Below, piece after piece: positions 45,078 to 59,487 of a DNA stretch of 64,000 nucleotides. The DNA lies in the IMG/VR virus record IMGVR_UViG_3300021197_001787, positions 32,001 through 96,000 of that record. One strand, given 5' to 3'. This stretch comes from a virus. The position numbers and the translations under genes are program-made. Positions within the stretch are counted from its first letter, which is position 1, and every line of letters begins with the position of its first letter. The notes beneath the pieces were generated by a model. That model had not been told where the DNA came from. It did not search any database and saw nothing but the letters and a program-made list of their open reading frames with translations.

Positions 45078-45856
45078 TATAAGTTAAAATCTAATTCATT
45101 ATCTGTGCTAGCATTATCAGGTTGTGTTTGTTTAGCGGTATCATATGCTTGATTTGTTGGCTCTGACACATTAACATCAAGTTCTTTTTCAAATTTATCA
45201 AAGTATAATTTTAGATTAGCAATCAAGTAATCATAAAACAAATCTTGATCTTCAGAGTTAGAAAGTAAGTCATAAGCATCAACAATAGAGCTTTCAATCT
45301 TCTTAAAGCTAGCATATGCCATGTTTCTACCGGTTACATCAGCACCTTCAATACCAAAATCATCTATTGGGTCTTTTTCTTCTTCAGGCTCTGCCGCATC
45401 CGGGTTAATATCAATAAATTTATCGGCCGGGTCATTGTCATCCACGACGTCGATATCAATTTCCTCTTGTACTTCAGGCGATGGCTCATTTGATTCTGCA
45501 TCATTATTAGCTTCCACCGGTGTTAGTGCGCCTACAACTGCGTTAATGACATGAGATCTAAAAGATTCTCTTTGTTCACCACTTGTCGTAAGTAATTTAT
45601 AATCTGTTTCTAAAATTGGAATAATCTTTTTAAGAAGATCTTCAAGAACATTGATTCCAGTATTCCCGTGTGGTGCAGGATCGTTGTCAGGAGTTGCAGC
45701 TTCTGACAAAATCTGTGTTTCAACGTTGATTAATTTGCGTACGTACTCACGCAATAAAGCCTCTTCAGATTTCATTTTCTGCTCTGCCAAGAGTCTTTTC
45801 TTCTTGACAATGCGTATAGCTTGTCTTATACTACTTCTGATAGTTTCTTCATTCAT
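45077..45856 (-). CDS. Hypothetical acidic protein, possibly prohead core/internal
   Basis: 259 aa; amphipathic LLREYVRKL..ILSE segment; conserved-looking STGINVLE-type motif; acidic linker. Confidence 0.6.
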   Translation of the reverse strand: MNEETIRSSIRQAIRIVKKKRLLAEQKMKSEEALLREYVRKLINVETQILSEAATPDNDPAPHGNTGINVLEDLLKKIIPILETDYKLLTTSGEQRESFRSHVINAVVGALTPVEANNDAESNEPSPEVQEEIDIDVVDDNDPADKFIDINPDAAEPEEEKDPIDDFGIEGADVTGRNMAYASFKKIESSIVDAYDLLSNSEDQDLFYDYLIANLKLYFDKFEKELDVNVSEPTNQAYDTAKQTQPDNASTDNELDFNL

Positions 45857-47865
45857 TGTGATATGCCTTTTCCTATAATTAGTTTCATAACTTCATCTAA
45901 CATACTTAAATCAACATTTTCTGTTTTATTTGTTTTAAGTCTGCTTTGTCTTTCTTGTTCAGCGTTTTCGTCTGGGACGTCAAGGCCCGGAAAGTTTGGT
46001 TTAACTGCTGCCGCGCCCTGTACTGCTGCACTCACAGTTGCTTCGTTAACTTCGCTCTGCCGCGGCCCTATTCCAAATATTGCTAACAACTCAAAAACGT
46101 TATCCTCTCCGACAAACTCTTCTAATTCTTCTATAGCATCAACGTCGGTCCTTGCTTTGGATATTAAAGATCTCATATCAGTCGCACGGAAAGCGCTGCC
46201 TCCTTGACGATTAATTGCCTTTACAGCGTTGGATTCTAGATCCATAACTTCGACACCTTCTTTTACATCTTTATCATTTACAAAAAGCCATCGATGCCAA
46301 TCGGGCACATCATTATCATCAGGCTTATCACTAGCGCCCAAGACAACTTTGTCTCCCGGTCTAATTTCACCCTCTTTACCAATATATTGAAGTGTAGCCC
46401 CAATCGGAGACGGCTCTTTAGATATTCTTAAGTCTACTTTTGGATTGTCAGCCAAGCCAGCAGATGCTAACAATAACTTCCAGACATCTTCAGCATGCGT
46501 AGCTTTGATAACAGTACCGTCATCTAACATACGGTTTTTCTTCTTGGGGCTTGAAATTAAAATAATTACGCGGTCGATATCACTTCTTCTAGCATACTGT
46601 TCAACCATTTTTAGGTGACCCATATGCGGGGGTTTGAATGCACCGGGCACAAAGGCGATTGTTTCTCCGGTGTAATCAGCATCAACTACAGGATCCTCAT
46701 CCTCGTCTTCCTTTACTGGTTTGTGTTCGTACCCTACAAAATCTTCTTCGTCTTCATTCAAAGAGGTATCATCTTGAAATGCGGAACCCATTCCACCAAG
46801 AATAAATTCTCCAGTAATTTTCACTGGGTTCATACCAAATAATTTGTCGTCACGTAAAACAACACCCTCGTGGTCCATAACGTTACCCATGGGGCTTGTT
46901 AGACCTCGTAACACATCATTACCAAGCATACGAGTTGCATGCATAAAAATAGCACCATATATAGCAGCTTCAGCATCAGCATCTTCAATAAGATCAACAA
47001 TAGCCGGAGAACCGCCTAGAATAGCTTTGTAAAGCTCTTTATGCAAAGGATGGGTCTTCTTACCATTCTTAAGCTTAACAGTCTTATAACGTGGGTTAGA
47101 AGCCTCAGAAAGCCAATCCTTAAGAGATTTGGTTATCTCCCTGTCATCTGATACCTGAATAGTAAAAGGTTGAGACAAAGTAGAAGAAAAATCAATATCT
47201 GTACCTTCTAATCTCTGTGTTGGTACCGAACCATAGACTTGAAATCCATATTCGTTAGCAACAACATTTAATTTTTTAATTAATTTAGCCATTACTTTTG
47301 GATCATAAAGAACTTCACTACTCGGTGCCTTTAATCCATCAGGGCGTTCTGCACCGGGTCTTACATTACCCTTGCTCGCCCCTGATTTAGCTGTTCTTTG
47401 ATAAAACTGATTCATACCATGTATGGCTAAGAAGTTTTCATCGTATTTTGTGACGTTTGTAGTTCCGGCAACATATTCTGTGTTAAGAAACAACGTCGCA
47501 TCGTCCCACATTCCTAATGTTTCTAACTCATCTTTGATATTTCTTAAAGATTTGTTTAAAATCATTAAGAGAGTTTTTATGGCCGGCCTCATACCGTGAC
47601 CTTCAGGAAATCTCTGGTCAACTCTGTCCATTGTGATTCCGCTGATATCTATTTCTTTCATTGAGCCACGGTCAACAGCAAATTGATGAACACCATTATG
47701 TTCAACAACCTTAAACGATACGTTTACACCGTCTATTTTTACTGCGCCGGCAGCTTCTTTCTCAACAAACTTTTTAGCTTTTTCGAAAAAGTCTAATAAA
47801 TCATTACCGGTATCAACCGAATTCAAATCAAATGGGTGGCTCATGTGGCCCGCTGCACCACCCAT
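45853..47865 (-). CDS. Two-domain protein: unknown N-domain (GGAAGHMSHPFD) + HxGH nucleotidyltransferase domain
   Basis: FVPGAFKPPHMGH Rossmann HIGH motif after an acidic linker; N-domain with KIDG...EYV...HEGVVLR. Confidence 0.7.
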   Translation of the reverse strand: MGGAAGHMSHPFDLNSVDTGNDLLDFFEKAKKFVEKEAAGAVKIDGVNVSFKVVEHNGVHQFAVDRGSMKEIDISGITMDRVDQRFPEGHGMRPAIKTLLMILNKSLRNIKDELETLGMWDDATLFLNTEYVAGTTNVTKYDENFLAIHGMNQFYQRTAKSGASKGNVRPGAERPDGLKAPSSEVLYDPKVMAKLIKKLNVVANEYGFQVYGSVPTQRLEGTDIDFSSTLSQPFTIQVSDDREITKSLKDWLSEASNPRYKTVKLKNGKKTHPLHKELYKAILGGSPAIVDLIEDADAEAAIYGAIFMHATRMLGNDVLRGLTSPMGNVMDHEGVVLRDDKLFGMNPVKITGEFILGGMGSAFQDDTSLNEDEEDFVGYEHKPVKEDEDEDPVVDADYTGETIAFVPGAFKPPHMGHLKMVEQYARRSDIDRVIILISSPKKKNRMLDDGTVIKATHAEDVWKLLLASAGLADNPKVDLRISKEPSPIGATLQYIGKEGEIRPGDKVVLGASDKPDDNDVPDWHRWLFVNDKDVKEGVEVMDLESNAVKAINRQGGSAFRATDMRSLISKARTDVDAIEELEEFVGEDNVFELLAIFGIGPRQSEVNEATVSAAVQGAAAVKPNFPGLDVPDENAEQERQSRLKTNKTENVDLSMLDEVMKLIIGKGISQ

Positions 47866-48116
47866 TATTCGTCACCCAGCGATTCTTCTAAGATACCCAC
47901 TTTTTCTTGAAGTACTTGCATTTCATTTTGCATTCTACGAGCGTATCGCTTGACTTCGCGAAGATGTTGTGAGGCAAGCGCAAAACGCCGCTGCTCCGTC
48001 ATGGTGCGCGGTTTAAACTTTGATATTATTTCTTGGAGACCTTGGATATAAGTAAAGATGTTTTTTTCACTAATATCTTCGTTTAAAAAATTTCTCCATT
48101 CTGAATCTAGCGACAT
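47865..48116 (-). CDS. Hypothetical coiled-coil protein
   Basis: Start set at MSLDSEWRNFLNE (AGGAG RBS). Confidence 0.7.
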   Translation of the reverse strand: MSLDSEWRNFLNEDISEKNIFTYIQGLQEIISKFKPRTMTEQRRFALASQHLREVKRYARRMQNEMQVLQEKVGILEESLGDE

Positions 48117-48223: not shown

Positions 48224-49072
48224 TTAATCCTTTTTGGCTTTATTCTCATTTACAATCTGAATTGCTTTCTTTAGAACCTCGCGAACTTTTGCCTCGGGGA
48301 TTGCTCGTTTATAACGTGCTTTCCCACCACGACCAGCCTTGGCCTGTGGAGCATTCTCCGGACGATCAGCAAGACCTGTTTCTTCAAGCTCTTCAGCGTC
48401 TTCGCCCTCATCGAGCGTTTCATCGGCATCAGCAGCTTCAGTTACATCCTCCTCAACGGATTCCTCAACGGTTTCTTCAGCCGCTTCTTCGGTAACCGCT
48501 TCTTCAGTAACTTCTTCTTCGCTCTCTGCTTGTAACTCACCTTTTCCATTAAACTCATTAAACTCCTCAAGGGTGTTAAATTTAAATCCCCACGCTTCAG
48601 ATAAAAGCGTACCAATTTCTTTTTCTTTCCAATCATTGAATGACATCTTATAGTCTCCTTCTTGTAGATGTTCGTAATAAATAGTCTCGTTTTTCTCTTT
48701 AAGCATGTCTTCAAAGTCTCTCAAACACATGCTGCCGTCTTTATTAGCCAATTCTTCAGCCTTTCTCATCAACGGATCTTTTTGTGCATATCCAGGCCCA
48801 AGGTACTCAGAACCGTCAAACATACCATCACAATGTTGTTTGTGATGCACTAATTCATGTCCAAGTGAGCGTAAGATATCTTTTGGGTGTCGTCCTGAAA
48901 TATATAAAAACACTGATTTGTCTTCAGGGTCATAATATGCTGTTTTACCCAAAGGGTTTTTTGCGTTTGATTTATCTCTTTTCAAAAATAATCTTGGAGG
49001 ACTTGTAAAACCTATGTGTTTCTGCGCAAATGGCATGAATTTTTTAATTAAATCTTTTAGGACATCATCCAT
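48224..49072 (-). CDS. Zincin-motif protein with Glu-rich repeat tail
   Basis: LGHELVHHKQ (HExxH); EEEVTEEAVTEEAAEETVEESVEE acidic repeats. Confidence 0.65.
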   Translation of the reverse strand: MDDVLKDLIKKFMPFAQKHIGFTSPPRLFLKRDKSNAKNPLGKTAYYDPEDKSVFLYISGRHPKDILRSLGHELVHHKQHCDGMFDGSEYLGPGYAQKDPLMRKAEELANKDGSMCLRDFEDMLKEKNETIYYEHLQEGDYKMSFNDWKEKEIGTLLSEAWGFKFNTLEEFNEFNGKGELQAESEEEVTEEAVTEEAAEETVEESVEEDVTEAADADETLDEGEDAEELEETGLADRPENAPQAKAGRGGKARYKRAIPEAKVREVLKKAIQIVNENKAKKD

Positions 49073-49093: not shown

Positions 49094-49101
49094 TAAATAG
49101 T
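49094..49101 (-). promoter_or_regulatory. Candidate late promoter ACTATTTA
   Basis: 22 nt upstream of ATG 49072. Confidence 0.6.
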
Positions 49102-50510: not shown

Positions 50511-50518
50511 TAAGTAGT
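50511..50518 (-). promoter_or_regulatory. Candidate late promoter ACTACTTA
   Basis: 20 nt upstream of ATG 50491. Confidence 0.6.
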
Positions 50519-50524
50519 TGTGAA

Positions 50525-51211
50525 TTAGCAAGTCCGCGTTTCTAATTTATAGCCATTCCTAATTTCAACTACTTTATAGATAACAAGTTTAAAATCTTCG
50601 GGTTTCACATCATTTATTTCAGGGTTATCGCATACTTTAGCCAACACATCATCAATATTCTTTTGAGAATCTTCGTAATATTCAATTCGATTTATATTAG
50701 ATTTACCGTTGGGCATTATTTTATTTTTCATCATTGCGACCATGACATCTCCCTTGGACTCACCTTGTGTTGCTATAGGCCGCACTTCAGAAGAGTCTAT
50801 CCCAATTTCATCTAAATAATCCATAATAGGCCCAAGAGAATTGCCTCGTCTCGCCGTCATGATATATGTTTTAGATTCCGTTGGTGTTTTTCTCATAATG
50901 TCAGTTACAATTTTTATTTCATCGGGATCTTTTACAATTGAAAAATCACTTAAATCAATTTGATAACCTAAGTCCATCAAAGCATCCACAGCATCAAAAG
51001 CTTCTACCCCTTCTTTCGCGGCAGCTGCGTTCATATACTCTTCAAACTCCTGCTGGTCACGTAGGGTCGCTTCTGAGCCATCGGGGGCCTTAACACGTGT
51101 TTCTGACCTCGTATGGGCTATTGTCTCATCGAAGTCAAATATACGAAGAGTTGTGATGGGTTCATAGTCTTCATTCAAATACTTCCGCCAATTTTCAAGT
51201 AGGAGTTTCAT
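50525..51211 (-). CDS. HAD-superfamily phosphatase with shared N-terminal leader
   Basis: IFDFDET (motif I DxD), MTARR (motif II), YYEDS (motif IV); true start MKLLLENWRKYLNE at 51211. Confidence 0.8.
   Translation of the reverse strand: MKLLLENWRKYLNEDYEPITTLRIFDFDETIAHTRSETRVKAPDGSEATLRDQQEFEEYMNAAAAKEGVEAFDAVDALMDLGYQIDLSDFSIVKDPDEIKIVTDIMRKTPTESKTYIMTARRGNSLGPIMDYLDEIGIDSSEVRPIATQGESKGDVMVAMMKNKIMPNGKSNINRIEYYEDSQKNIDDVLAKVCDNPEINDVKPEDFKLVIYKVVEIRNGYKLETRTC
51186..51211 (-). repeat. 26-nt leader repeat copy 1 (ATGAAACTCCTACTTGAAAATTGGCG)
   Basis: Identical to copies at 51574-51599 and 52437-52462. Confidence 0.95.
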
Positions 51212-51599
51212 CTTGAACTCCAAACAATTTATTATATTCTTCATTATATAACTCTTTAACCGATACGATTGCATCGTCTTCTAGTGCCAGTGCAAAGAAT
51301 GCTGCTGCAGCACGATGGTTTCCATCCATAATATACTGATATTCGCCATTTTTAACTACAACAATTAGCGGAAATTTATAATTGGCATTCTTAACTCTGT
51401 CTGGATCTAATTTGACACTTGGCTTGTTTTTTAAGTTATTCCTTAAAGTAGATGCCTTCATATGCTTGCATTTCCTTCCTTCCTCACAGCTTTTTCCTAT
51501 GATTTTAAAAACATCATTAATAGAGACACTATCCCAAGTTGTCTCTAAACCGTGGGCTTCATTTATATACTGGCGCCAATTTTCAAGTAGGAGTTTCAT
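51195..51599 (-). CDS. ParB/Srx-like domain protein with shared N-terminal leader
   Basis: PLIVV...YIMDGNHRAAAA matches the ParB/Srx DGxHR motif; leader MKLLLENWRQYINE. Confidence 0.7.
   Translation of the reverse strand: MKLLLENWRQYINEAHGLETTWDSVSINDVFKIIGKSCEEGRKCKHMKASTLRNNLKNKPSVKLDPDRVKNANYKFPLIVVVKNGEYQYIMDGNHRAAAAFFALALEDDAIVSVKELYNEEYNKLFGVQDETPT
51574..51599 (-). repeat. 26-nt leader repeat copy 2
   Basis: Plus strand cgccaattttcaagtaggagtttcat. Confidence 0.95.
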
Positions 51600-52462
51600 T
51601 ACAGTCCACTAACTTTTAAGGCATCAGCCATCTTTTTTTGTTGTGCTATCATTTCTGGATTGCTAAACGTAGTAGACGTTGCTTCGATTGAATTTTTAGC
51701 TGCTTTAGCCGCGGCATCTGCTAGCGCCTTAGCTTCCGTTTTTTCTAAGGCCGCAACACCGCTTTCAATTACTTTTAGTAATTTACCTCCAATGTCTTGG
51801 CCAATTCCTGCGGTGACATCCTCTGGCGCATTTGCGATCTGAAGTATTCCCCCACCAATATCCTGTAAACCCTCAACTTGTGATGCGGCCTCTCCAATTT
51901 TTAACAACTGTTGCTTGTTAGCTATTATTTCTTGGCTGATCTCTCCCGTACCCAAATCCATTGTTGGTCTAGACATAACATCTCCCGCCATGGCGTCACC
52001 ACCGCCGAAAATGTGGTTTATAACATAAAGAACCAACATTGCTATAATGATTTTAATAGCAAATGAGCCTATCTTGTAAAGTGTTGGATTTTTTTCTTCA
52101 AAGCGTTGCATAAAGCTTCGTATCTTGTCGACAACTCCAAGAATCTTGCCGGCATACTTGGCCGCCTTTTCTTTCATTCTGTCTATTAACATGAATGCTT
52201 GAGTCGAGAGATACAAAACAGGATTGCTGGCCATATCAGCCAGTGCGCCCTCATCTATTTGTTCGATATGATAGTCAACAGAGCGTTCCCAGTTCTCAAG
52301 GAATGTTTCTATGGCGGACTCACTCTCGTTCAAAAGACTGAGAGCATCATAAAAAGATGTTTTAGTAACTGTATCATTTTCAAACAAATACAAATCACCG
52401 TAGTGAGATGAGTTCTTGCTTTCGTTTAAATACTGTCGCCAATTTTCAAGTAGGAGTTTCAT
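51599..52462 (-). CDS. Hypothetical protein with shared leader and one TM segment
   Basis: Start MKLLLENWRQYLNE at 52462; internal LLNE and FLENWERS echoes; TM AIKIIIAMLVLYVI. Confidence 0.75.
   Translation of the reverse strand: MKLLLENWRQYLNESKNSSHYGDLYLFENDTVTKTSFYDALSLLNESESAIETFLENWERSVDYHIEQIDEGALADMASNPVLYLSTQAFMLIDRMKEKAAKYAGKILGVVDKIRSFMQRFEEKNPTLYKIGSFAIKIIIAMLVLYVINHIFGGGDAMAGDVMSRPTMDLGTGEISQEIIANKQQLLKIGEAASQVEGLQDIGGGILQIANAPEDVTAGIGQDIGGKLLKVIESGVAALEKTEAKALADAAAKAAKNSIEATSTTFSNPEMIAQQKKMADALKVSGL
52437..52462 (-). repeat. 26-nt leader repeat copy 3
   Basis: Plus strand cgccaattttcaagtaggagtttcat. Confidence 0.95.
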
Positions 52463-52581
52463 GCACAATTATCTCCACATTCTGCAGAATTCCAGCATCC
52501 ACAACAACAGCAACATCTGCCAATTGTAAGGTCTGCTAATTTTTTTAAGTATAAACTTAATTTTTGAAACAACATATTCAT
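52459..52581 (-). CDS. Cysteine-rich microprotein (40 aa, absent from ORF track)
   Basis: MNMLFQKLSLYLKKLADLTIGRCCCCCGCWNSAECGDNCA; GGAGGAG RBS; exactly fills the gap, with ATGA overlap onto the next gene. Confidence 0.8.
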   Translation of the reverse strand: MNMLFQKLSLYLKKLADLTIGRCCCCCGCWNSAECGDNCA

Positions 52582-52583
52582 TT

Positions 52584-53165
52584 TTATTCTCCTCCGTAAA
52601 TTTCGTATAATTCTTCTTCTTTATTTTCATCTAAAATAGTAGCTACTAAATGCACTCTTGGTTTGTCGCCCCCATTTAAAGCTGTATGATAATCAGTAGT
52701 TTTCATGTAGTATACTGAACCATCTGCTAACATATGCTGTACTTCATTATTAACAATCATCAAAGACCCAGGATTTGTAATTATTGGTATATGAAGACGA
52801 TTCTCCGGATCCCTATGATAACTCAAACAAGCTCTGCTGTCTAGTTTTAAAACTCTGACCCGGCCTAATCTATAATGTTTAGAAAGTGTATCATATACGT
52901 TTTTAAAATAAGTATTCATCAGAATAGGTACGAAAATTTTATAGGCCTCTTCATTGACTTGTTTTTCAATTTGAATTTCCTCATAGTCATCATTTTTTGA
53001 CCAAAAAACCCCCCTCTGTTCAGCAGAACCAGCTTCAGTGCTTATAATACTAATACAATTTACTAGATCTCCACTAAATCCAATATTGGTGACAGCATAT
53101 TCATAAGCCCCTCTTAAGGCCGCGGCATCAAAATGGATATTTAATTTTCTAAAATTATCAATCAT
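52584..53165 (-). CDS. 2OG-Fe(II) dioxygenase, aspartyl/asparaginyl beta-hydroxylase-like
   Basis: GRVRVL, SYHRD (HxD), RLHIPI, HTALNGG..PRVHL; start 53165 preferred over 53198. Confidence 0.85.
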   Translation of the reverse strand: MIDNFRKLNIHFDAAALRGAYEYAVTNIGFSGDLVNCISIISTEAGSAEQRGVFWSKNDDYEEIQIEKQVNEEAYKIFVPILMNTYFKNVYDTLSKHYRLGRVRVLKLDSRACLSYHRDPENRLHIPIITNPGSLMIVNNEVQHMLADGSVYYMKTTDYHTALNGGDKPRVHLVATILDENKEEELYEIYGGE

Positions 53166-53166
53166 T

Positions 53167-53409
53167 TTAATTATCATACACCTTATCTGCTTTATCACTT
53201 GCGATAGTTGTTGCTTTTAACATATCTTCTGGATCAACTTCTTTAAGTATTAAATTTCCTGTTTTTGGTTCAAAATACATGCCAATTAGATCACCTTTGG
53301 AAACATTTTTCATCTCTTCTTCAGTGATTATTATTTGTCCACCATTCTTTTTTACCATCATAGTTAAAACGCTAAAAAGAAAATCTGGGTCTTGCATATA
53401 TTTGCTCAT
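53167..53409 (-). CDS. Hypothetical protein
   Basis: Start set at MSKYMQ (ATGA overlap with upstream stop). Confidence 0.65.
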   Translation of the reverse strand: MSKYMQDPDFLFSVLTMMVKKNGGQIIITEEEMKNVSKGDLIGMYFEPKTGNLILKEVDPEDMLKATTIASDKADKVYDN

Positions 53410-55877
53410 GAATTTAAGAATCCTTTCCATGTTTTAACTATACTTTCATTTGTCTGCATAAACGATGGTTGGCGAGCATTGATAAACTGAGCCAACACTC
53501 TGTTAAATACCACGTTAAGGTTGTCTTCGTCGTCCATCTCACCCTCTACAAGCTCTTGGAACAATCCAGTCATAATATCGGGCTCATCGGCATTAATCGA
53601 GAATATAGCGGTATATCTAGCCTCTCCAGCGTGTTCCACTGTTGTGGCGTTCATTTGTAAGTAATACTGAGTGTTCTGTTCTTTTCTTGGCGCATCTAAA
53701 AGTTGCTTTCTCAACTCAATTTTAAAGTCGCGAGAATCAAGAATTTGCATAAGCACTTCCATGCCTAATCCTAAATCTTCTGGATCGTAATAGTGAGAGT
53801 ATCTTGCGGTAGACTCATACGAATCGGAGTAATCTCCGTCAGTTTCTAGATCCCATTCATATGAAGTGAGATTGCCGTCGTCAATCGCCATGGCTAAATT
53901 GATGTAATCGCCACCTTCCATTTGTCCTTCGCGCTTGAAGTAACCAGTGAGGATTTCTTCTAAAGCATCTCTTCTATCATCAATTATAGCATCAACTTTT
54001 TGAAGCGCTTCTTGATATTCTTCGGGGAGGGCCATATATGAACCACCATAAATGTCGGGATGCTCAAAATTAACTTGTATGGATAACGTTATTTCATCTC
54101 TGACACGACGGATTGTGGGAGTATCAACATCAGACGGAAAAAATATATCACCAAATATATTATTTAACTCGTCAACTGAGTTCCATACAACTTCTTCCGC
54201 ATTGCTTGGGAGTCTTTTCCAATCACTTACATCCCATTTGGCAACAAAAGCTGCAAAAGGTTTAATAAACGCCCCATCGCCGCCGTCATCACCAACTTCG
54301 TAGTCGGTATATGTTTGAGCCATTCTGTCGTTGTAATCATTCATTATTTGTTCGCATTGCCCATTGTATTGTGCAATCACGTCACCAATTAAATCAGCGT
54401 CCAAAGTTTCCTCGGTGTCTGTGTTCTGGCGCATCGCACCAGCAAATTCAATATTTTTGTCACCCAACAATTGCTTCATTAATACAGCACGACCTGATGC
54501 CTTCGCAGTATCTTCGTAAGAACCACCAAAAATCATAAATTTGCTTAAATCAATCTTATCACCCTCTTTGGGCATGTTTTGTATGACTTCTTCTTGGTTT
54601 GATCTTGCCCAGTCAGTAACTTGATTGGCTAAACCGGGGATATCCGCACCATACACTCGTTTTTCAGGCATTCCAACGTCTTGGCCATCATCATAACGCT
54701 TTGGAGGCTCATCTCCTTCATAATATCTAACATGACGGATGCGTGTGCGAGAAATTGGCTCAATATCGCCGGTAAATGGACGTTTATCGTCAGCAAATAT
54801 CTCACCTTCTTGGATTTCTTGCTCTGCACTATCAATATTACCCGTGTTAGTGGCGCTCAGAAGGTCTTCTGTCTCAACCACGTATGCTACGGCTCCGTGG
54901 CCTTGAGCCTCGGCTACAGCGCATTTATAGTAGGATTGATAGGCATTTGAGCGACTAGCTGGAGAGTGGCAAGAGGTAATCTCGTCAAAATCACTCATTC
55001 TGAGCACATCTATCGGGTGTCGAGTGATAATAATGGAAAATTTGTCATTATCGATGTTATTTATCTCTTTTTTGATGTATCCGGCGTTCTTTTTCCAATA
55101 TTCGCCGTATTCAGTGGCTAGATCAGTTAAATTATAGCCCGCGGGGCCTGCAACGCCCGGATTTACGATATATAAGTAAATTTGGTCACTAATTCTTTCA
55201 AAATTTTCTAATTCTTTCTCATCAAGTGCAGCTTTACGCATTTGCTTTGTAACATAGTGTGAACTAGTAACTGGTTTACCATTTGGGCCTTTATAATCAA
55301 TACCATCCAAGTGATCATAGACTTTTTGGTATAATGCGTCTTTTCTTCGGCTTAAATCAGCCAATTTAGAGAAAAGCTTGCCAATTTTCATCTGAATCTT
55401 CTTGGTTTTCTTCTTGACGGGCTGATCACCCAAAGTATTGAAGATATCGCTGGCTGTACGTAAATCTCGCTCGGCAAACACCATACCTTTCTCCCAATCT
55501 ACATCATATTCTTGAGATCTGAAGAATTCTGCGAACTTTCCAAGCTCTGTAGACGGGTCAGTGGTCGGAAATGGTATAACAACACGCATTTTGCCACTAA
55601 AAAGGTCGTTTAGGGGCAAATTAGCTGGATCTAGGTCGTCTAATACGTCCTCAAGTACTCGCATCTCGTCTTCGGTGACTTCCCGAAGCACTTTTTCGCC
55701 TGAAGAATACAGATCTTCGTTTCTACGTCTCTTCCTTTTGGTTTTTTTGACACAATTAGGCACCATGCGGTTACCTTTTTTCTTTAGGCCGGCTTTCCTA
55801 TAACCTTTCCAGCACTTTTCTTGTAAAGTGTCCAGCAAATTTGCTGTTTTTAACAGGATTAGTTCATCATTGGTCAT
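53406..55877 (-). CDS. Large hypothetical protein (823 aa) with N-terminal basic Cys module
   Basis: LQE|KCWKGYRKAGLKKKGNRMVPNCVK module; acidic body; TRHPIDVLRMSDF..SCHS conserved-looking block. Confidence 0.7.
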   Translation of the reverse strand: MTNDELILLKTANLLDTLQEKCWKGYRKAGLKKKGNRMVPNCVKKTKRKRRRNEDLYSSGEKVLREVTEDEMRVLEDVLDDLDPANLPLNDLFSGKMRVVIPFPTTDPSTELGKFAEFFRSQEYDVDWEKGMVFAERDLRTASDIFNTLGDQPVKKKTKKIQMKIGKLFSKLADLSRRKDALYQKVYDHLDGIDYKGPNGKPVTSSHYVTKQMRKAALDEKELENFERISDQIYLYIVNPGVAGPAGYNLTDLATEYGEYWKKNAGYIKKEINNIDNDKFSIIITRHPIDVLRMSDFDEITSCHSPASRSNAYQSYYKCAVAEAQGHGAVAYVVETEDLLSATNTGNIDSAEQEIQEGEIFADDKRPFTGDIEPISRTRIRHVRYYEGDEPPKRYDDGQDVGMPEKRVYGADIPGLANQVTDWARSNQEEVIQNMPKEGDKIDLSKFMIFGGSYEDTAKASGRAVLMKQLLGDKNIEFAGAMRQNTDTEETLDADLIGDVIAQYNGQCEQIMNDYNDRMAQTYTDYEVGDDGGDGAFIKPFAAFVAKWDVSDWKRLPSNAEEVVWNSVDELNNIFGDIFFPSDVDTPTIRRVRDEITLSIQVNFEHPDIYGGSYMALPEEYQEALQKVDAIIDDRRDALEEILTGYFKREGQMEGGDYINLAMAIDDGNLTSYEWDLETDGDYSDSYESTARYSHYYDPEDLGLGMEVLMQILDSRDFKIELRKQLLDAPRKEQNTQYYLQMNATTVEHAGEARYTAIFSINADEPDIMTGLFQELVEGEMDDEDNLNVVFNRVLAQFINARQPSFMQTNESIVKTWKGFLNS

Positions 55878-55880
55878 TTT

Positions 55881-56348
55881 TTATTCTTCTTTTTCAGTGT
55901 TTGAGCGCTCTTGCCAATCTGCCGAGACTGAATCAGTTTCAATTGGGCCACCTTTAGCCCATGTTCTGCAAGATCTTGCGCTGTGGCATTTAAAATGGTG
56001 CATCCAACAGTACCCCAACACTCCATCTTCATCAGAAGTCTCACCAGGCATACATTCTTTCATTCTAGGAGATACATCGAAAGCAACACAATTCCCACAA
56101 ACTGACTTTGTTGCAGCTTCGGGGGTCGTATTCCAATATTCTGCTATTTTTACCCAGTAATCAGCGGGTTCATCAACATTTAAAGGGCCATATTGTATGT
56201 GTTCAGCTTTGATAGCAGAATCTCGGTTTTTTGTATTTAGCTCCAAGTCTTGAGTAGCCTCCGGACAAACCAAATCCGTAATTTTTGATATAGTAAGTTT
56301 TACTTCTTCCGATAAGTATCGGCGCCAATTTTCAATTAATAGTTTCAT
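55881..56348 (-). CDS. Cys/His-rich hypothetical protein with shared N-terminal leader
   Basis: MKLLIENWRRYLSEE; CGNC...C...YCWMHHFKCHSARSC putative metal site. Confidence 0.8.
   Translation of the reverse strand: MKLLIENWRRYLSEEVKLTISKITDLVCPEATQDLELNTKNRDSAIKAEHIQYGPLNVDEPADYWVKIAEYWNTTPEAATKSVCGNCVAFDVSPRMKECMPGETSDEDGVLGYCWMHHFKCHSARSCRTWAKGGPIETDSVSADWQERSNTEKEE
56323..56348 (-). repeat. Leader repeat copy 4 (degenerate: ATGAAACTATTAATTGAAAATTGGCG)
   Basis: Differs from the other three copies at 3 of 26 positions. Confidence 0.9.
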
Positions 56349-57705
56349 CTTGTTCCTTCATTGATTTAGAACCACGGCATTTCCACTTTTTACGTGATAA
56401 TGCATTCGCACATGGCGGATTCTTACACTTTTTAATTTTTGCTGACCGAGCACAGTATGCATCACCTTTCTTTGTGCCGGGCCTGATACGATCACCACCA
56501 CCTTTTGCTTGTCCTTTTTGGCCAAATGAGCGACATTTACCATTTACACGCTTAGCAAAGCGTTTTCCTTTGGAGGGCTTACAAGCTTTCTTCTTTTTTT
56601 TCTCTTCTAAGCTGTCCATTAAGATAATATCACCATCTTCGTGGACTTTTATATTGTTCGAAGAGTCTATAATCTTGTTTATTTCTTCTTTTGACGCCTT
56701 TGTATGTGTCTTCAGTGCGTCCATACCAGCAGCACCACCTTCATCGCGTAAAGCTTTTATAACTTTTGCTTTTAAATTAGATTTTTTTCCCTCATTTAAA
56801 CTTCCAACCAATGCCTTACCAAGTTCTTCAACCTCATTTGATTTTATTTTGGTTATATCAGTCACAGGTTTATTTAATTGGCGTGCAATTTCTGCTGCGT
56901 GTTTTTTTGCAATATCAGGTGTTAACCAACCAGGAACGTTCTGAAATGAACCCTGAACGCCAGATTCACTTTGGCCTAGGACATCTACGTAGTTTAAATA
57001 TCCGTGTGGCATACCGTCTGCTGGTTCAATCCAATAGTTTGCAATATCCCGGCCGGCCTGTGGTCCGCTACTTTGATTACTCTTTGAGTCACCACTCAAA
57101 GTAGATTTAATTTTATCTAAAAAGCCTTCATGCAAAACTTGAGTCAATTCATCCTCAATCATAATTTCAAGAGATTCTTTCTTAGAATTACCCCAGTTTT
57201 TAGCGCCAACCTTACGACATTTAACAAGAGCACCAGAAGCATAAGCAGATGGCCACACTTTATAGCGTGATTTTACCTTGCGATAGCAAGCATCTTTTTT
57301 ACCAGATGACTTTTTCTTCTTCTTCTTTTTCTTCTTGCGCTTTTCGTCAAGCACTGCTTCAAGTTCTTCTTTGATAATTTGCTCTAAATCCATGTATAAT
57401 TCCTCATTTTTCTTAGATTTCTTTTTAGCTTTTTTACCCCATGATTTGCCCTTACCACGCTCTTTGCAAGCGCCCGGGGTTGGTCTACAAGCAGGGTATT
57501 TCTTACGTTTCTCTCCTGAACCACGTCCACAAGATTTATAACCACCCTTTCCATCAGGTGAATTGCAATCAACCCACCCTTTTTTCTTGCCTTTGGCGCC
57601 TTTTCTACCAAACCAATCTCTTAAAGACGATTCCTTGCTAGATTCAGATCCGGCCTTTTTGCGTTTTTTCTTTTTCTCGTCTAACGGGCCGTATAGATCG
57701 TCCAT
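56332..57705 (-). CDS. Modular Lys/Cys-rich protein (candidate polyprotein)
   Basis: Five modules each preceded by L-x-E (PLDE, VLDE, VLHE, SLNE, SLEE); start ATG 57705 preferred over TTG 57723. Confidence 0.75.
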   Translation of the reverse strand: MDDLYGPLDEKKKKRKKAGSESSKESSLRDWFGRKGAKGKKKGWVDCNSPDGKGGYKSCGRGSGEKRKKYPACRPTPGACKERGKGKSWGKKAKKKSKKNEELYMDLEQIIKEELEAVLDEKRKKKKKKKKKSSGKKDACYRKVKSRYKVWPSAYASGALVKCRKVGAKNWGNSKKESLEIMIEDELTQVLHEGFLDKIKSTLSGDSKSNQSSGPQAGRDIANYWIEPADGMPHGYLNYVDVLGQSESGVQGSFQNVPGWLTPDIAKKHAAEIARQLNKPVTDITKIKSNEVEELGKALVGSLNEGKKSNLKAKVIKALRDEGGAAGMDALKTHTKASKEEINKIIDSSNNIKVHEDGDIILMDSLEEKKKKKACKPSKGKRFAKRVNGKCRSFGQKGQAKGGGDRIRPGTKKGDAYCARSAKIKKCKNPPCANALSRKKWKCRGSKSMKEQDETIN

Positions 57706-57733
57706 AGTAGTTTTAATCCTCAAGGTACTGACT

Positions 57734-57741
57734 TAAATAGT
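57734..57741 (-). promoter_or_regulatory. Candidate late promoter ACTATTTA
   Basis: 29 nt upstream of ATG 57705. Confidence 0.6.
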
Positions 57742-59479: not shown

Positions 59480-59487
59480 TAAGTAGT
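59480..59487 (-). promoter_or_regulatory. Candidate late promoter ACTACTTA
   Basis: 24 nt upstream of ATG 59456. Confidence 0.6.

Follow-up and report, generated by a model that had tools for sequence, protein, structure and literature searches.

Four genes in a 64,000-nt stretch of viral DNA, bases 32001-96000 of the 194,231-bp IMG/VR record IMGVR_UViG_3300021197_001787, which is rated complete, encode otherwise unrelated proteins that share the same 14-residue N-terminal start, MKLL(L/I)ENWRxY(L/I)xE. A first-pass annotation of this stretch (hereafter the window) had taken the shared start, or leader, for a portable address tag that directs diverse cargo proteins into the phage head. That observation holds, on a scale well beyond what the window alone could show: the leader heads many different proteins in related phages, and the cassettes that carry it differ in number and identity between close relatives. 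We conclude that an uncultured clade of marine phages of the T4 type, with genomes of 180-205 kb, probably uses the peptide as a T4-like capsid-targeting propeptide, and that the peptide probably doubles as a recombination joint.

The shared leader and its cargo in the window

A degenerate leader pattern had just four matches in the window, starting at 51211, 51599, 52462 and 56348, all on the minus strand like every gene of the region, and never in 100 shuffled versions of the window; the whole 194-kb genome held no match beyond these four. In the DNA alignment identity starts at the ATG and extends over 26 nt in three copies and over 23 of 26 nt in the fourth, as the first-pass annotation had reported, and the sequence 5' of the ATG is unrelated among the four genes. 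The cargo parts fall into four separate BLAST clusters, and hence are as unrelated as had been claimed. Coordinates and peptides of the four leaders, and of the other features discussed below, are collected in Table 1.

The way in which these genes are joined was also described correctly. An out-of-frame TGA inside the leader is the stop codon of two upstream genes, the one for the protein of 134 amino acids (aa), which ends in ...QDETPT-stop, and the 463-aa gene upstream of the 155-aa gene, which ends in ...QDETIN-stop; the 287-aa gene stops in a TAATG junction, and the ATGA junction likewise stands as reported. The latter provides the stop of a putative 40-aa gene (window 52459-52581) that contains a run of five cysteines (...GRCCCCCGCWNSAECGDNCA) and ends on the ATGA of the leader of the 287-aa gene. 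Both off-frames of the leader are closed by TGA, one of them through ATGA, and to this extent the sequence agrees with the proposal that an inserted cassette would be automatically coupled in translation, but tight overlaps are common in such phages.

Searches of the four cargo proteins against Pfam and PHROGs gave nothing usable, even at E values up to 1. The 228-aa protein, first labelled a HAD phosphatase, belongs to a family of at least 26 tagged members with invariant FDFDxTIA (DxDxT), TAR and DDS motifs. Its AlphaFold2 (AF2) model (predicted local distance difference test score, pLDDT, 78) had HAD-fold proteins as best Foldseek matches, the top one being the Legionella effector Ceg4, a HAD phosphatase, and the HAD domain of drimenol synthase being another. 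Because profile matches of this family in the PDB were to class B acid phosphatases alone and reach only E 0.1, the assignment as HAD-like is based on motif and fold, which support it. For the 134-aa protein, which has a DGNHR motif, the ParB/Srx-like label is weakly but coherently supported by PDB profile matches to ParB, SbnI and sulfiredoxin (best E 0.006) and by Foldseek, in which all matches of the AF2 model were Srx, ParB or Noc. The 287-aa and 155-aa proteins had no family match in Pfam or PHROGs; the single hydrophobic segment of the former and the Cys/His-rich composition of the latter are in keeping with the transmembrane and Cys/His labels given to them. Homologues of both carry the leader in other contigs (L122 and L127 for the 287-aa protein; L041, L069, L093 and L111 for the 155-aa protein, whose position in the gene island described below differs among them).

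In both AF2 models, those of the 228-aa and 134-aa proteins, the tag forms a separate, low-confidence N-terminal helix ahead of the folded domain; in the former it is a detached helix spanning residues 2-15 with pLDDT<50. The leader helix is amphipathic. One member of the HAD-like family (L063:10339-11157) provides an example of a spacer module, in which ~70 basic residues separate the tag from a second, relic ...ALLE↓N site (here and below the arrow marks the cut position, known for T4 and putative elsewhere).

Spread of the leader and turnover of the tagged genes

The first-pass annotation had proposed a scan of the genome and its relatives for the leader and for turnover of its cargo. Two pooled scans of IMG/VR yielded more than 120 viral contigs with at least 207 distinct leader ORFs (open reading frames), of which at least 185 are complete, and the latter form at least ~101 cargo clusters. 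The leader consensus in these relatives is MKLL(L/F/M/I)ENWRx(Y/F)(L/I)xE. Among the matches listed, the eight genomes with the leader and a completeness of at least 90% are all 180-205 kb long and encode an S77 protease; the shorter leader contigs have completeness ratings of 12-68% relative to genomes of that size. A scan of 185,579 cellular genomes found the leader in just six short contigs of metagenome-assembled genomes (L163-L168) of incongruent taxonomy, in bins assigned to Woesearchaeota, Undinarchaeota, Opitutia, Isosphaeraceae and a gammaproteobacterium; these are almost certainly mis-binned phage DNA, and the scan of cellular genomes provided no clue to the host. A search of the literature brought up no report of a tag of this kind from marine T4-like phages.

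We searched Pfam with 105 cargo proteins, the 101 cluster representatives plus the four of the window. Most had no match; the families found included AAA_33, Zeta_toxin and AAA_18 kinases, NUDIX, protein kinase (Pkinase), GNAT acetyltransferases, RNase_T exonuclease, tRNA_lig_CPD, PGDYG, the papain-like Tox-PLDMTX and, in one protein among the 105, HAD_SAK_1. These families are ubiquitous and normally tag-free, and hence the tag has been grafted onto the cargo.

The tagged genes occupy an island with a conserved framework: genes for a 242-aa protein, a Lys-rich protein of the 463-aa type, and the 823-aa and 87-aa proteins precede the tagged array, and the 107-aa gene follows it, after which the framework continues to a 282-aa HExxH protein, an 83-aa tagged protein and a 670-aa ligase/nucleotidyltransferase-like protein. 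Between the 87-aa and 107-aa genes the array comprises from one to at least four tagged genes, with the HAD-like gene usually last. Five closely related contigs share the same 40 nt before the first leader and differ in what comes after: the HAD-like gene alone in L033 and L024, a 146-aa gene and then the HAD-like gene in L046, the ParB-like gene and then the HAD-like gene in L090, and 146-aa, 124-aa and ParB-like genes before the HAD-like one in L038. Since an identical 40-nt flank precedes differing arrays of 1, 1, 2, 2 and 4 leader genes, the breakpoints are at the leader. The earlier suggestion of recombinational shuffling at this site is thus supported, with cassettes gained and lost at breakpoints there and with the same shared-stretch pattern in ipII and ipIII of T4. 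Leader-only stubs without cargo (at least nine, for example MKLLLENWRG-stop, in contigs that include L143, L144, L148, L109, L122, L023 and L044) are probably footprints of deletions or exchanges at the leader.

Some neighbours of the array can be described further. The 463-aa protein contains a domain with matches in cyanophage genes labelled 'structural protein', and blastn of the region against cultured phages returned only patches of 130-160 nt inside this gene. The 282-aa protein (window 48224-49072), which is part of the same syntenic block and has a candidate late motif before its gene, contains a HELVHH motif and an acidic tail and gave weak matches to a metalloprotease (phrog_87) and DUF6647. 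The 670-aa protein (window 45853-47865) keeps its place immediately behind the 83-aa tagged protein; close to its N-terminus a KxDG ligase-like motif can be recognised by eye, and it also has a cytidylyltransferase-like domain (PF01467, E 1.5e-5). Within the operon just before the tagged array lies a gene for a 204-aa Asp/Asn beta-hydroxylase-like protein of the cupin/2-oxoglutarate type (window 52584-53198; PF05118, E 1e-8), which only some relatives have.

Head module, tag variants and the predicted cut site

The head genes of the phage include those for a Peptidase_S77 (gp21-type) prohead protease (genome 181682-182287, minus strand; E 4e-30, phrog_207), a gp23-type capsid protein (genome 169619-171538) and a gp20-type portal. 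The closest cultured capsid proteins, those of Flavobacterium phage immuto, are merely ~45% identical, and the phage is hence a distant, uncultured T4-type myovirus. When its capsid protein is aligned with T4 gp23, a conserved ELLRE↓A (L-R-E↓A) falls at the T4 cut FLTE↓A. In nine related genomes (L128:13682-14287 and its homologues in L130-L137) the prohead proteases have a conserved N-terminus, M-x-KKLLREYYEL, and C-terminus, ...RINRLLNE↓VL, that look like self-processing or targeting ends. With only residues 1-9 fixed in the search, [LIVM]-x-E occupies positions 12-14 in 172 of the 207 leaders listed, and by our own count about 20 further ones have it moved by one residue, to one position later. 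Given the capsid ELLRE↓A at the T4 site and the protease's own ...LLNE↓VL, the protease of this clade likely obeys the same rule that closes the tag.

A link between tag and head module is also apparent in gene order. Directly before and after the protease gene, this genome as well as G008 and G012 have variable, mutually unrelated proteins that carry tag variants, much as genes 67, 68 and 22 for the core proteins flank gene 21 in T4. The 195-aa and 654-aa proteins of this genome are unrelated to each other, and the variable genes beside the protease in G008 and G012 have nothing in common other than their tag-variant starts (MKLLLEHWNRYLQE, ...VATWRTFLNE and ...SWKNYLVE). Five complete genomes were searched, and each has 3-11 tag matches (E<=1), most of them clustered in a single island. 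A small basic protein containing ...MIRRFIKKCKKERI..., encoded at L128:11059-11382 and, as homologues of 73-80 aa, after the protease in L130-L137, may be a phage-encoded ribosomal protein bS21, judging by its motif.

Two echoes of the leader that had been noticed in the window proved to be conserved. The one at 48116 is the true N-terminus of the 83-aa protein, and is kept as MSL-x-x-x-W-(R/K/Q)-x-F-L-x-E in ~20 related contigs. The other, at the C-terminus of the 823-aa protein, exists in ~28 homologues, which end with (T/I/L)-x-E, then x-(L/I)-V-x-x-W-(K/R)-x-(F/Y)-(L/I), then the stop. The core W-(R/K)-x-(Y/F)-(L/I) is thus present at either end of a protein, with a conserved Glu always between core and protein body; as the 823-aa family has a C-terminal core with the Glu before it, the putative cut site always falls between tag and cargo. 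Such an arrangement is exactly what a removable address tag would predict, and other readings would explain it less easily.

Expression may be timed by a strand-biased motif, ACTA[CT]TTA, with 33 copies on the sense strand of the genome versus 1 on the antisense strand, mostly 12-40 nt before the starts of structural genes. It precedes the 565-aa, 463-aa, 107-aa and 282-aa genes of the window as well as a candidate scaffold gene directly before the capsid gene, and in contigs of the L033 type it stands directly before the first leader gene. We regard it as a candidate late promoter, distinct from that of T4 (TATAAATA).

Other shared ends were noted among the proteins of this genome. The 459-aa protein encoded before the capsid gene (L128:3560-4939; end KKLAGIN-stop) and the 654-aa tagged protein (L128:11725-13689; end TLAGINKRIL-stop) are the only proteins of the genome ending in ...LAGIN, which may be a capsid-binding scaffold tail; a 356-aa tagged protein of G008 is 60% identical to the 654-aa protein over the last 15 residues. 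A second shared N-terminal peptide, MK(I/L)T(K/E)xQLKQ(I/L)I(K/L)EE(L/I), which contains I-x-E, occurs in at least seven other proteins of the genome (window 61607, a 90-aa gene; genome 192515, 193159, 188980, 4977, 771 and 457), twice inside the 463-aa protein (window 57387 and 57171), and, in G009, at the start of the variable gene that follows the protease; it may be a second class of tag or a cleavable linker. Whether the N-terminal helix LLSKWEKTGLLEG of the capsid protein resembles the tag was considered, but the idea was set aside, as the leader profile misses this helix at E<=1.

Table 1. Tagged genes, tag variants and associated features (window coordinates unless the genome is indicated).
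Feature	Position	Strand	Remarks
Leader MKLLLENWRKYLNE, 14 codons	51170..51211	-	228-aa HAD-like cargo, gene 50525-51211
Leader MKLLLENWRQYINE	51558..51599	-	134-aa ParB/Srx-like cargo (weakly supported), gene 51195-51599; stop is the TGA within the next leader
Leader MKLLLENWRQYLNE	52421..52462	-	287-aa cargo with one hydrophobic segment, gene 51599-52462
Leader MKLLIENWRRYLSE, 23/26 nt	56307..56348	-	155-aa Cys/His-rich cargo, gene 55881-56348
463-aa Lys-rich, 155-aa leader and 823-aa genes	53406..57723	-	Tightly coupled head of the island; phrog_727/38880; conserved synteny
C-terminal tail of 823-aa protein, TNE↓SIVKTWKGFLNS-stop	53409..53453	-	Tag in reversed order, W-K-x-F-L core, invariant Glu before it
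83-aa protein starting with leader variant MSLDSEWRNFLNE	47865..48116	-	Conserved; weak hidden Markov model match
195-aa protein, start MSEMKVIIERWDRYINE	Two genes before protease gene		Tag variant
654-aa protein, start (V)SSYKVIYEGWQRHLSE	Gene overlaps protease stop		Tag variant
Small protein, start MNKLFENWRKHITE	Genome 192924		Tag variant
Candidate late-promoter motif ACTATTTA	57734..57741	-	18 nt upstream of 463-aa gene
Further ACTA[CT]TTA copies	59480-59487, 50511-50518, 49094-49101	-	Strand-biased motif

Proposed role of the tag, alternatives and significance

In the capsid-targeting reading, the amphipathic helix, with its core W-(R/K)-x-(Y/F)-(L/I), would bind the scaffolding core during prohead building, and the protein bearing it would be enclosed in the prohead. 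The gp21-type (S77) prohead protease would then cut after the Glu of the closing (L/I)-x-E, and the freed cargo would remain in the head and enter the host with the DNA. At the DNA level, the tag would act as a short homology stretch where entire cassettes of tag plus cargo can be gained, lost or swapped. In T4, head-internal proteins act first in the cell, and one of them, IPI, blocks a restriction enzyme. The first-pass annotation had arrived at loading of the capsid from the window, and wherever computation could check what this would entail the outcome agrees with it: the genome is of T4 type, an S77 protease is encoded, the (L/I)-x-E closes the tag unforced, the helix is detached in the models and the cassettes turn over.

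Several observations weigh against this reading. The clade is uncultured and known here from its genes alone. The marine tag has no significant similarity to the T4 tag MKTYQEFIAE, the shared features seen by eye being M-K, Glu6 and the closing hydrophobic-x-Glu, and it may be an analogue of the T4 tag or a relative diverged beyond recognition. The HAD-like cargo found no match by tblastn in 50,697 records of cultured phages, and the hydrophobic segment of another cargo is of the membrane type, which is unusual in a soluble protein inside the head. The 823-aa tail in this genome has Thr, not Leu or Ile, three residues before the Glu. Late expression of the tagged genes has the candidate motif as its one basis; the T4 late promoter was dropped as a marker of such expression, since it is not enriched in the window (9 observed versus 8.6 expected). 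Finally, the rare codons CTC, CTA and CGA are favoured in the leader, and hence there is some conservation at the nucleotide level as well.

The peptide might instead serve as a docking tag for some other partner, be it a hub of the phage or the host, an assembly of several enzymes or an enzyme that processes the tag specifically, for example the HExxH protein, with the Glu bound and not cut. A single short helix common to many enzymes would suit such a role, the conserved syntenic block includes a metalloprotease-like gene, and the case for packaging is itself indirect. We nevertheless consider docking unlikely, given that tag variants occur on the variable genes that flank the prohead protease, that the hydrophobic-x-Glu matches the predicted maturation site of the capsid protein, and that this site changes sides along with the tag. 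One form of it, a tag like those of ribosomally synthesised and post-translationally modified peptides served by a radical S-adenosylmethionine enzyme, was rejected on its own account: the complete genome has no PF04055 match, versus matches in 14 of 14 control genomes, and the absence of this enzyme makes a tag of that kind unlikely.

It is very unlikely that the amphipathic helix is a localisation signal of another sort, directing proteins to the inner membrane, the place at which proheads of the T4 type begin, or elsewhere in the cell, with no role in encapsidation. Its amphipathic character and the hydrophobic segment of one cargo would be in line with this, but the helix is short, highly charged and without a hydrophobic core, and the Glu boundary, the C-terminal mirror form and the link to the head module would be left unexplained.

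The repeat could also be viewed as an element of DNA or RNA. In the 207 leaders listed the residues are fixed and synonymous codons vary (CTC, CTA, CTT or TTA for Leu3; CGA, CGG, CGT, CGC or AGA for Arg9), and upstream of the ATG, where conservation begins, there is just a weak purine-rich ribosome site; selection therefore acts on the peptide. Leader pairs identical over 26 nt make up 28% within contigs versus 9% between contigs, and this homogeneity, together with the favoured rare codons, fits repeated recombination or gene conversion among leaders. As to the junctions, 141 of these leaders overlap the upstream stop (98 by ATGA, 30 by the TGA 17 nt into the leader and 13 by TAATG or TGATG). 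A recombination hot spot, a translation-initiation or coupling element or a duplication scar, in which the peptide is irrelevant, would account for such overlaps and homogeneity, for the codon preference, the 26 identical nucleotides within the genome, the TGA that closes both off-frames and the orphan stubs, but is most improbable, because synonymous sites vary where residues do not, the divergent variants MKVIIERWDRYINE, YKVIYEGWQRHLSE and MSLDSEWRNFLNE keep the chemistry and not the bases, a C-terminal peptide version exists, the conserved Glu and hydrophobic residue lack an explanation at the RNA level, and recombination at the leader is compatible with, and indeed expected under, capsid targeting.

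The system known to be closest to capsid targeting as proposed here is that of T4, in which the capsid-targeting sequence (CTS) of IPI, IPII and IPIII and the propeptides of Alt, gp67 and gp68, removed by gp21, are likewise short N-terminal peptides on unrelated proteins. The first 10 residues of IPIII are enough for packaging, and gp21 cuts after L/I-x-E (PMC9026906); here too the tag closes with (L/I)-x-E and a protease of the S77 family is encoded. The internal proteins of T-even phages differ from one phage to another and keep the tag, and reviews have already proposed the CTS as an evolutionary route to load varied proteins (PMC9026906, PMC3012670). Identity of nucleotides within a genome is a further likeness: ipII and ipIII share an identical tag-coding stretch of 30/30 nt in the T4 record, in which we confirmed the T4 tag, and three copies share 26/26 nt here. 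In contrast to T4, the tag comprises 14 residues rather than 10, it heads at least ~101 cargo clusters with many enzymes among them rather than a few small basic proteins, and it has a mirrored C-terminal form on a large conserved protein; the marine system is, moreover, known here from the genes alone.

T-even phages reportedly have a hyperplastic internal-protein locus, said to have been described by Repoila et al. in 1994, at which phages swap diverse ORFs headed by a conserved CTS. Such exchange among T-even phages is echoed in section 3.1 of PMC9026906. The island resembles that locus in its fixed site, in the number and identity of tagged genes, which vary between close relatives, and in breakpoints at the tag; it differs in its arrays of one to at least four tightly overlapping tagged genes, in its leader-only stubs and in the framework of 823-aa, 87-aa and 107-aa genes. 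In the giant phages phiKZ, 201phi2-1 and SPN3US, gp21-related proteases cut the propeptides of ejection or inner-body proteins after a short x-E motif. There, as proposed for the marine phages, many head-internal proteins are cut C-terminal to Glu by a homologous protease and ejected into the host (PMC9026906, section 3.2; see also PMC5694885), but giant-phage propeptides are diverse and of considerable length, in contrast to one portable 14-residue tag, and the lineage differs too.

The principle has been known from T4 since the 1990s; what is new is the scale, the different tag and its C-terminal mirror form. We suggest, tentatively and with less confidence than we place in capsid targeting as such, that the core may be a two-way address label with which an abundant, uncultured marine T4-type clade pre-loads about a hundred exchangeable enzyme families as injected effectors, renewed by recombination. 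These would include protein kinases, acetyltransferases, NUDIX hydrolases, nucleases, RNA-repair modules and a ParB/Srx-like protein. If this is true, a single searchable tag would mark early-acting head proteins across a clade of ocean phages and yield a catalogue of candidate effectors in at least ~101 clusters, and searching with the label would give access to a very large, unexplored reservoir of proteins that phages deliver for host takeover and anti-defence. The tag would also be a candidate for loading foreign proteins into T4-type capsids other than those of coliphages, and the island would represent a natural case of plug-in protein loading with a defined recombination joint.

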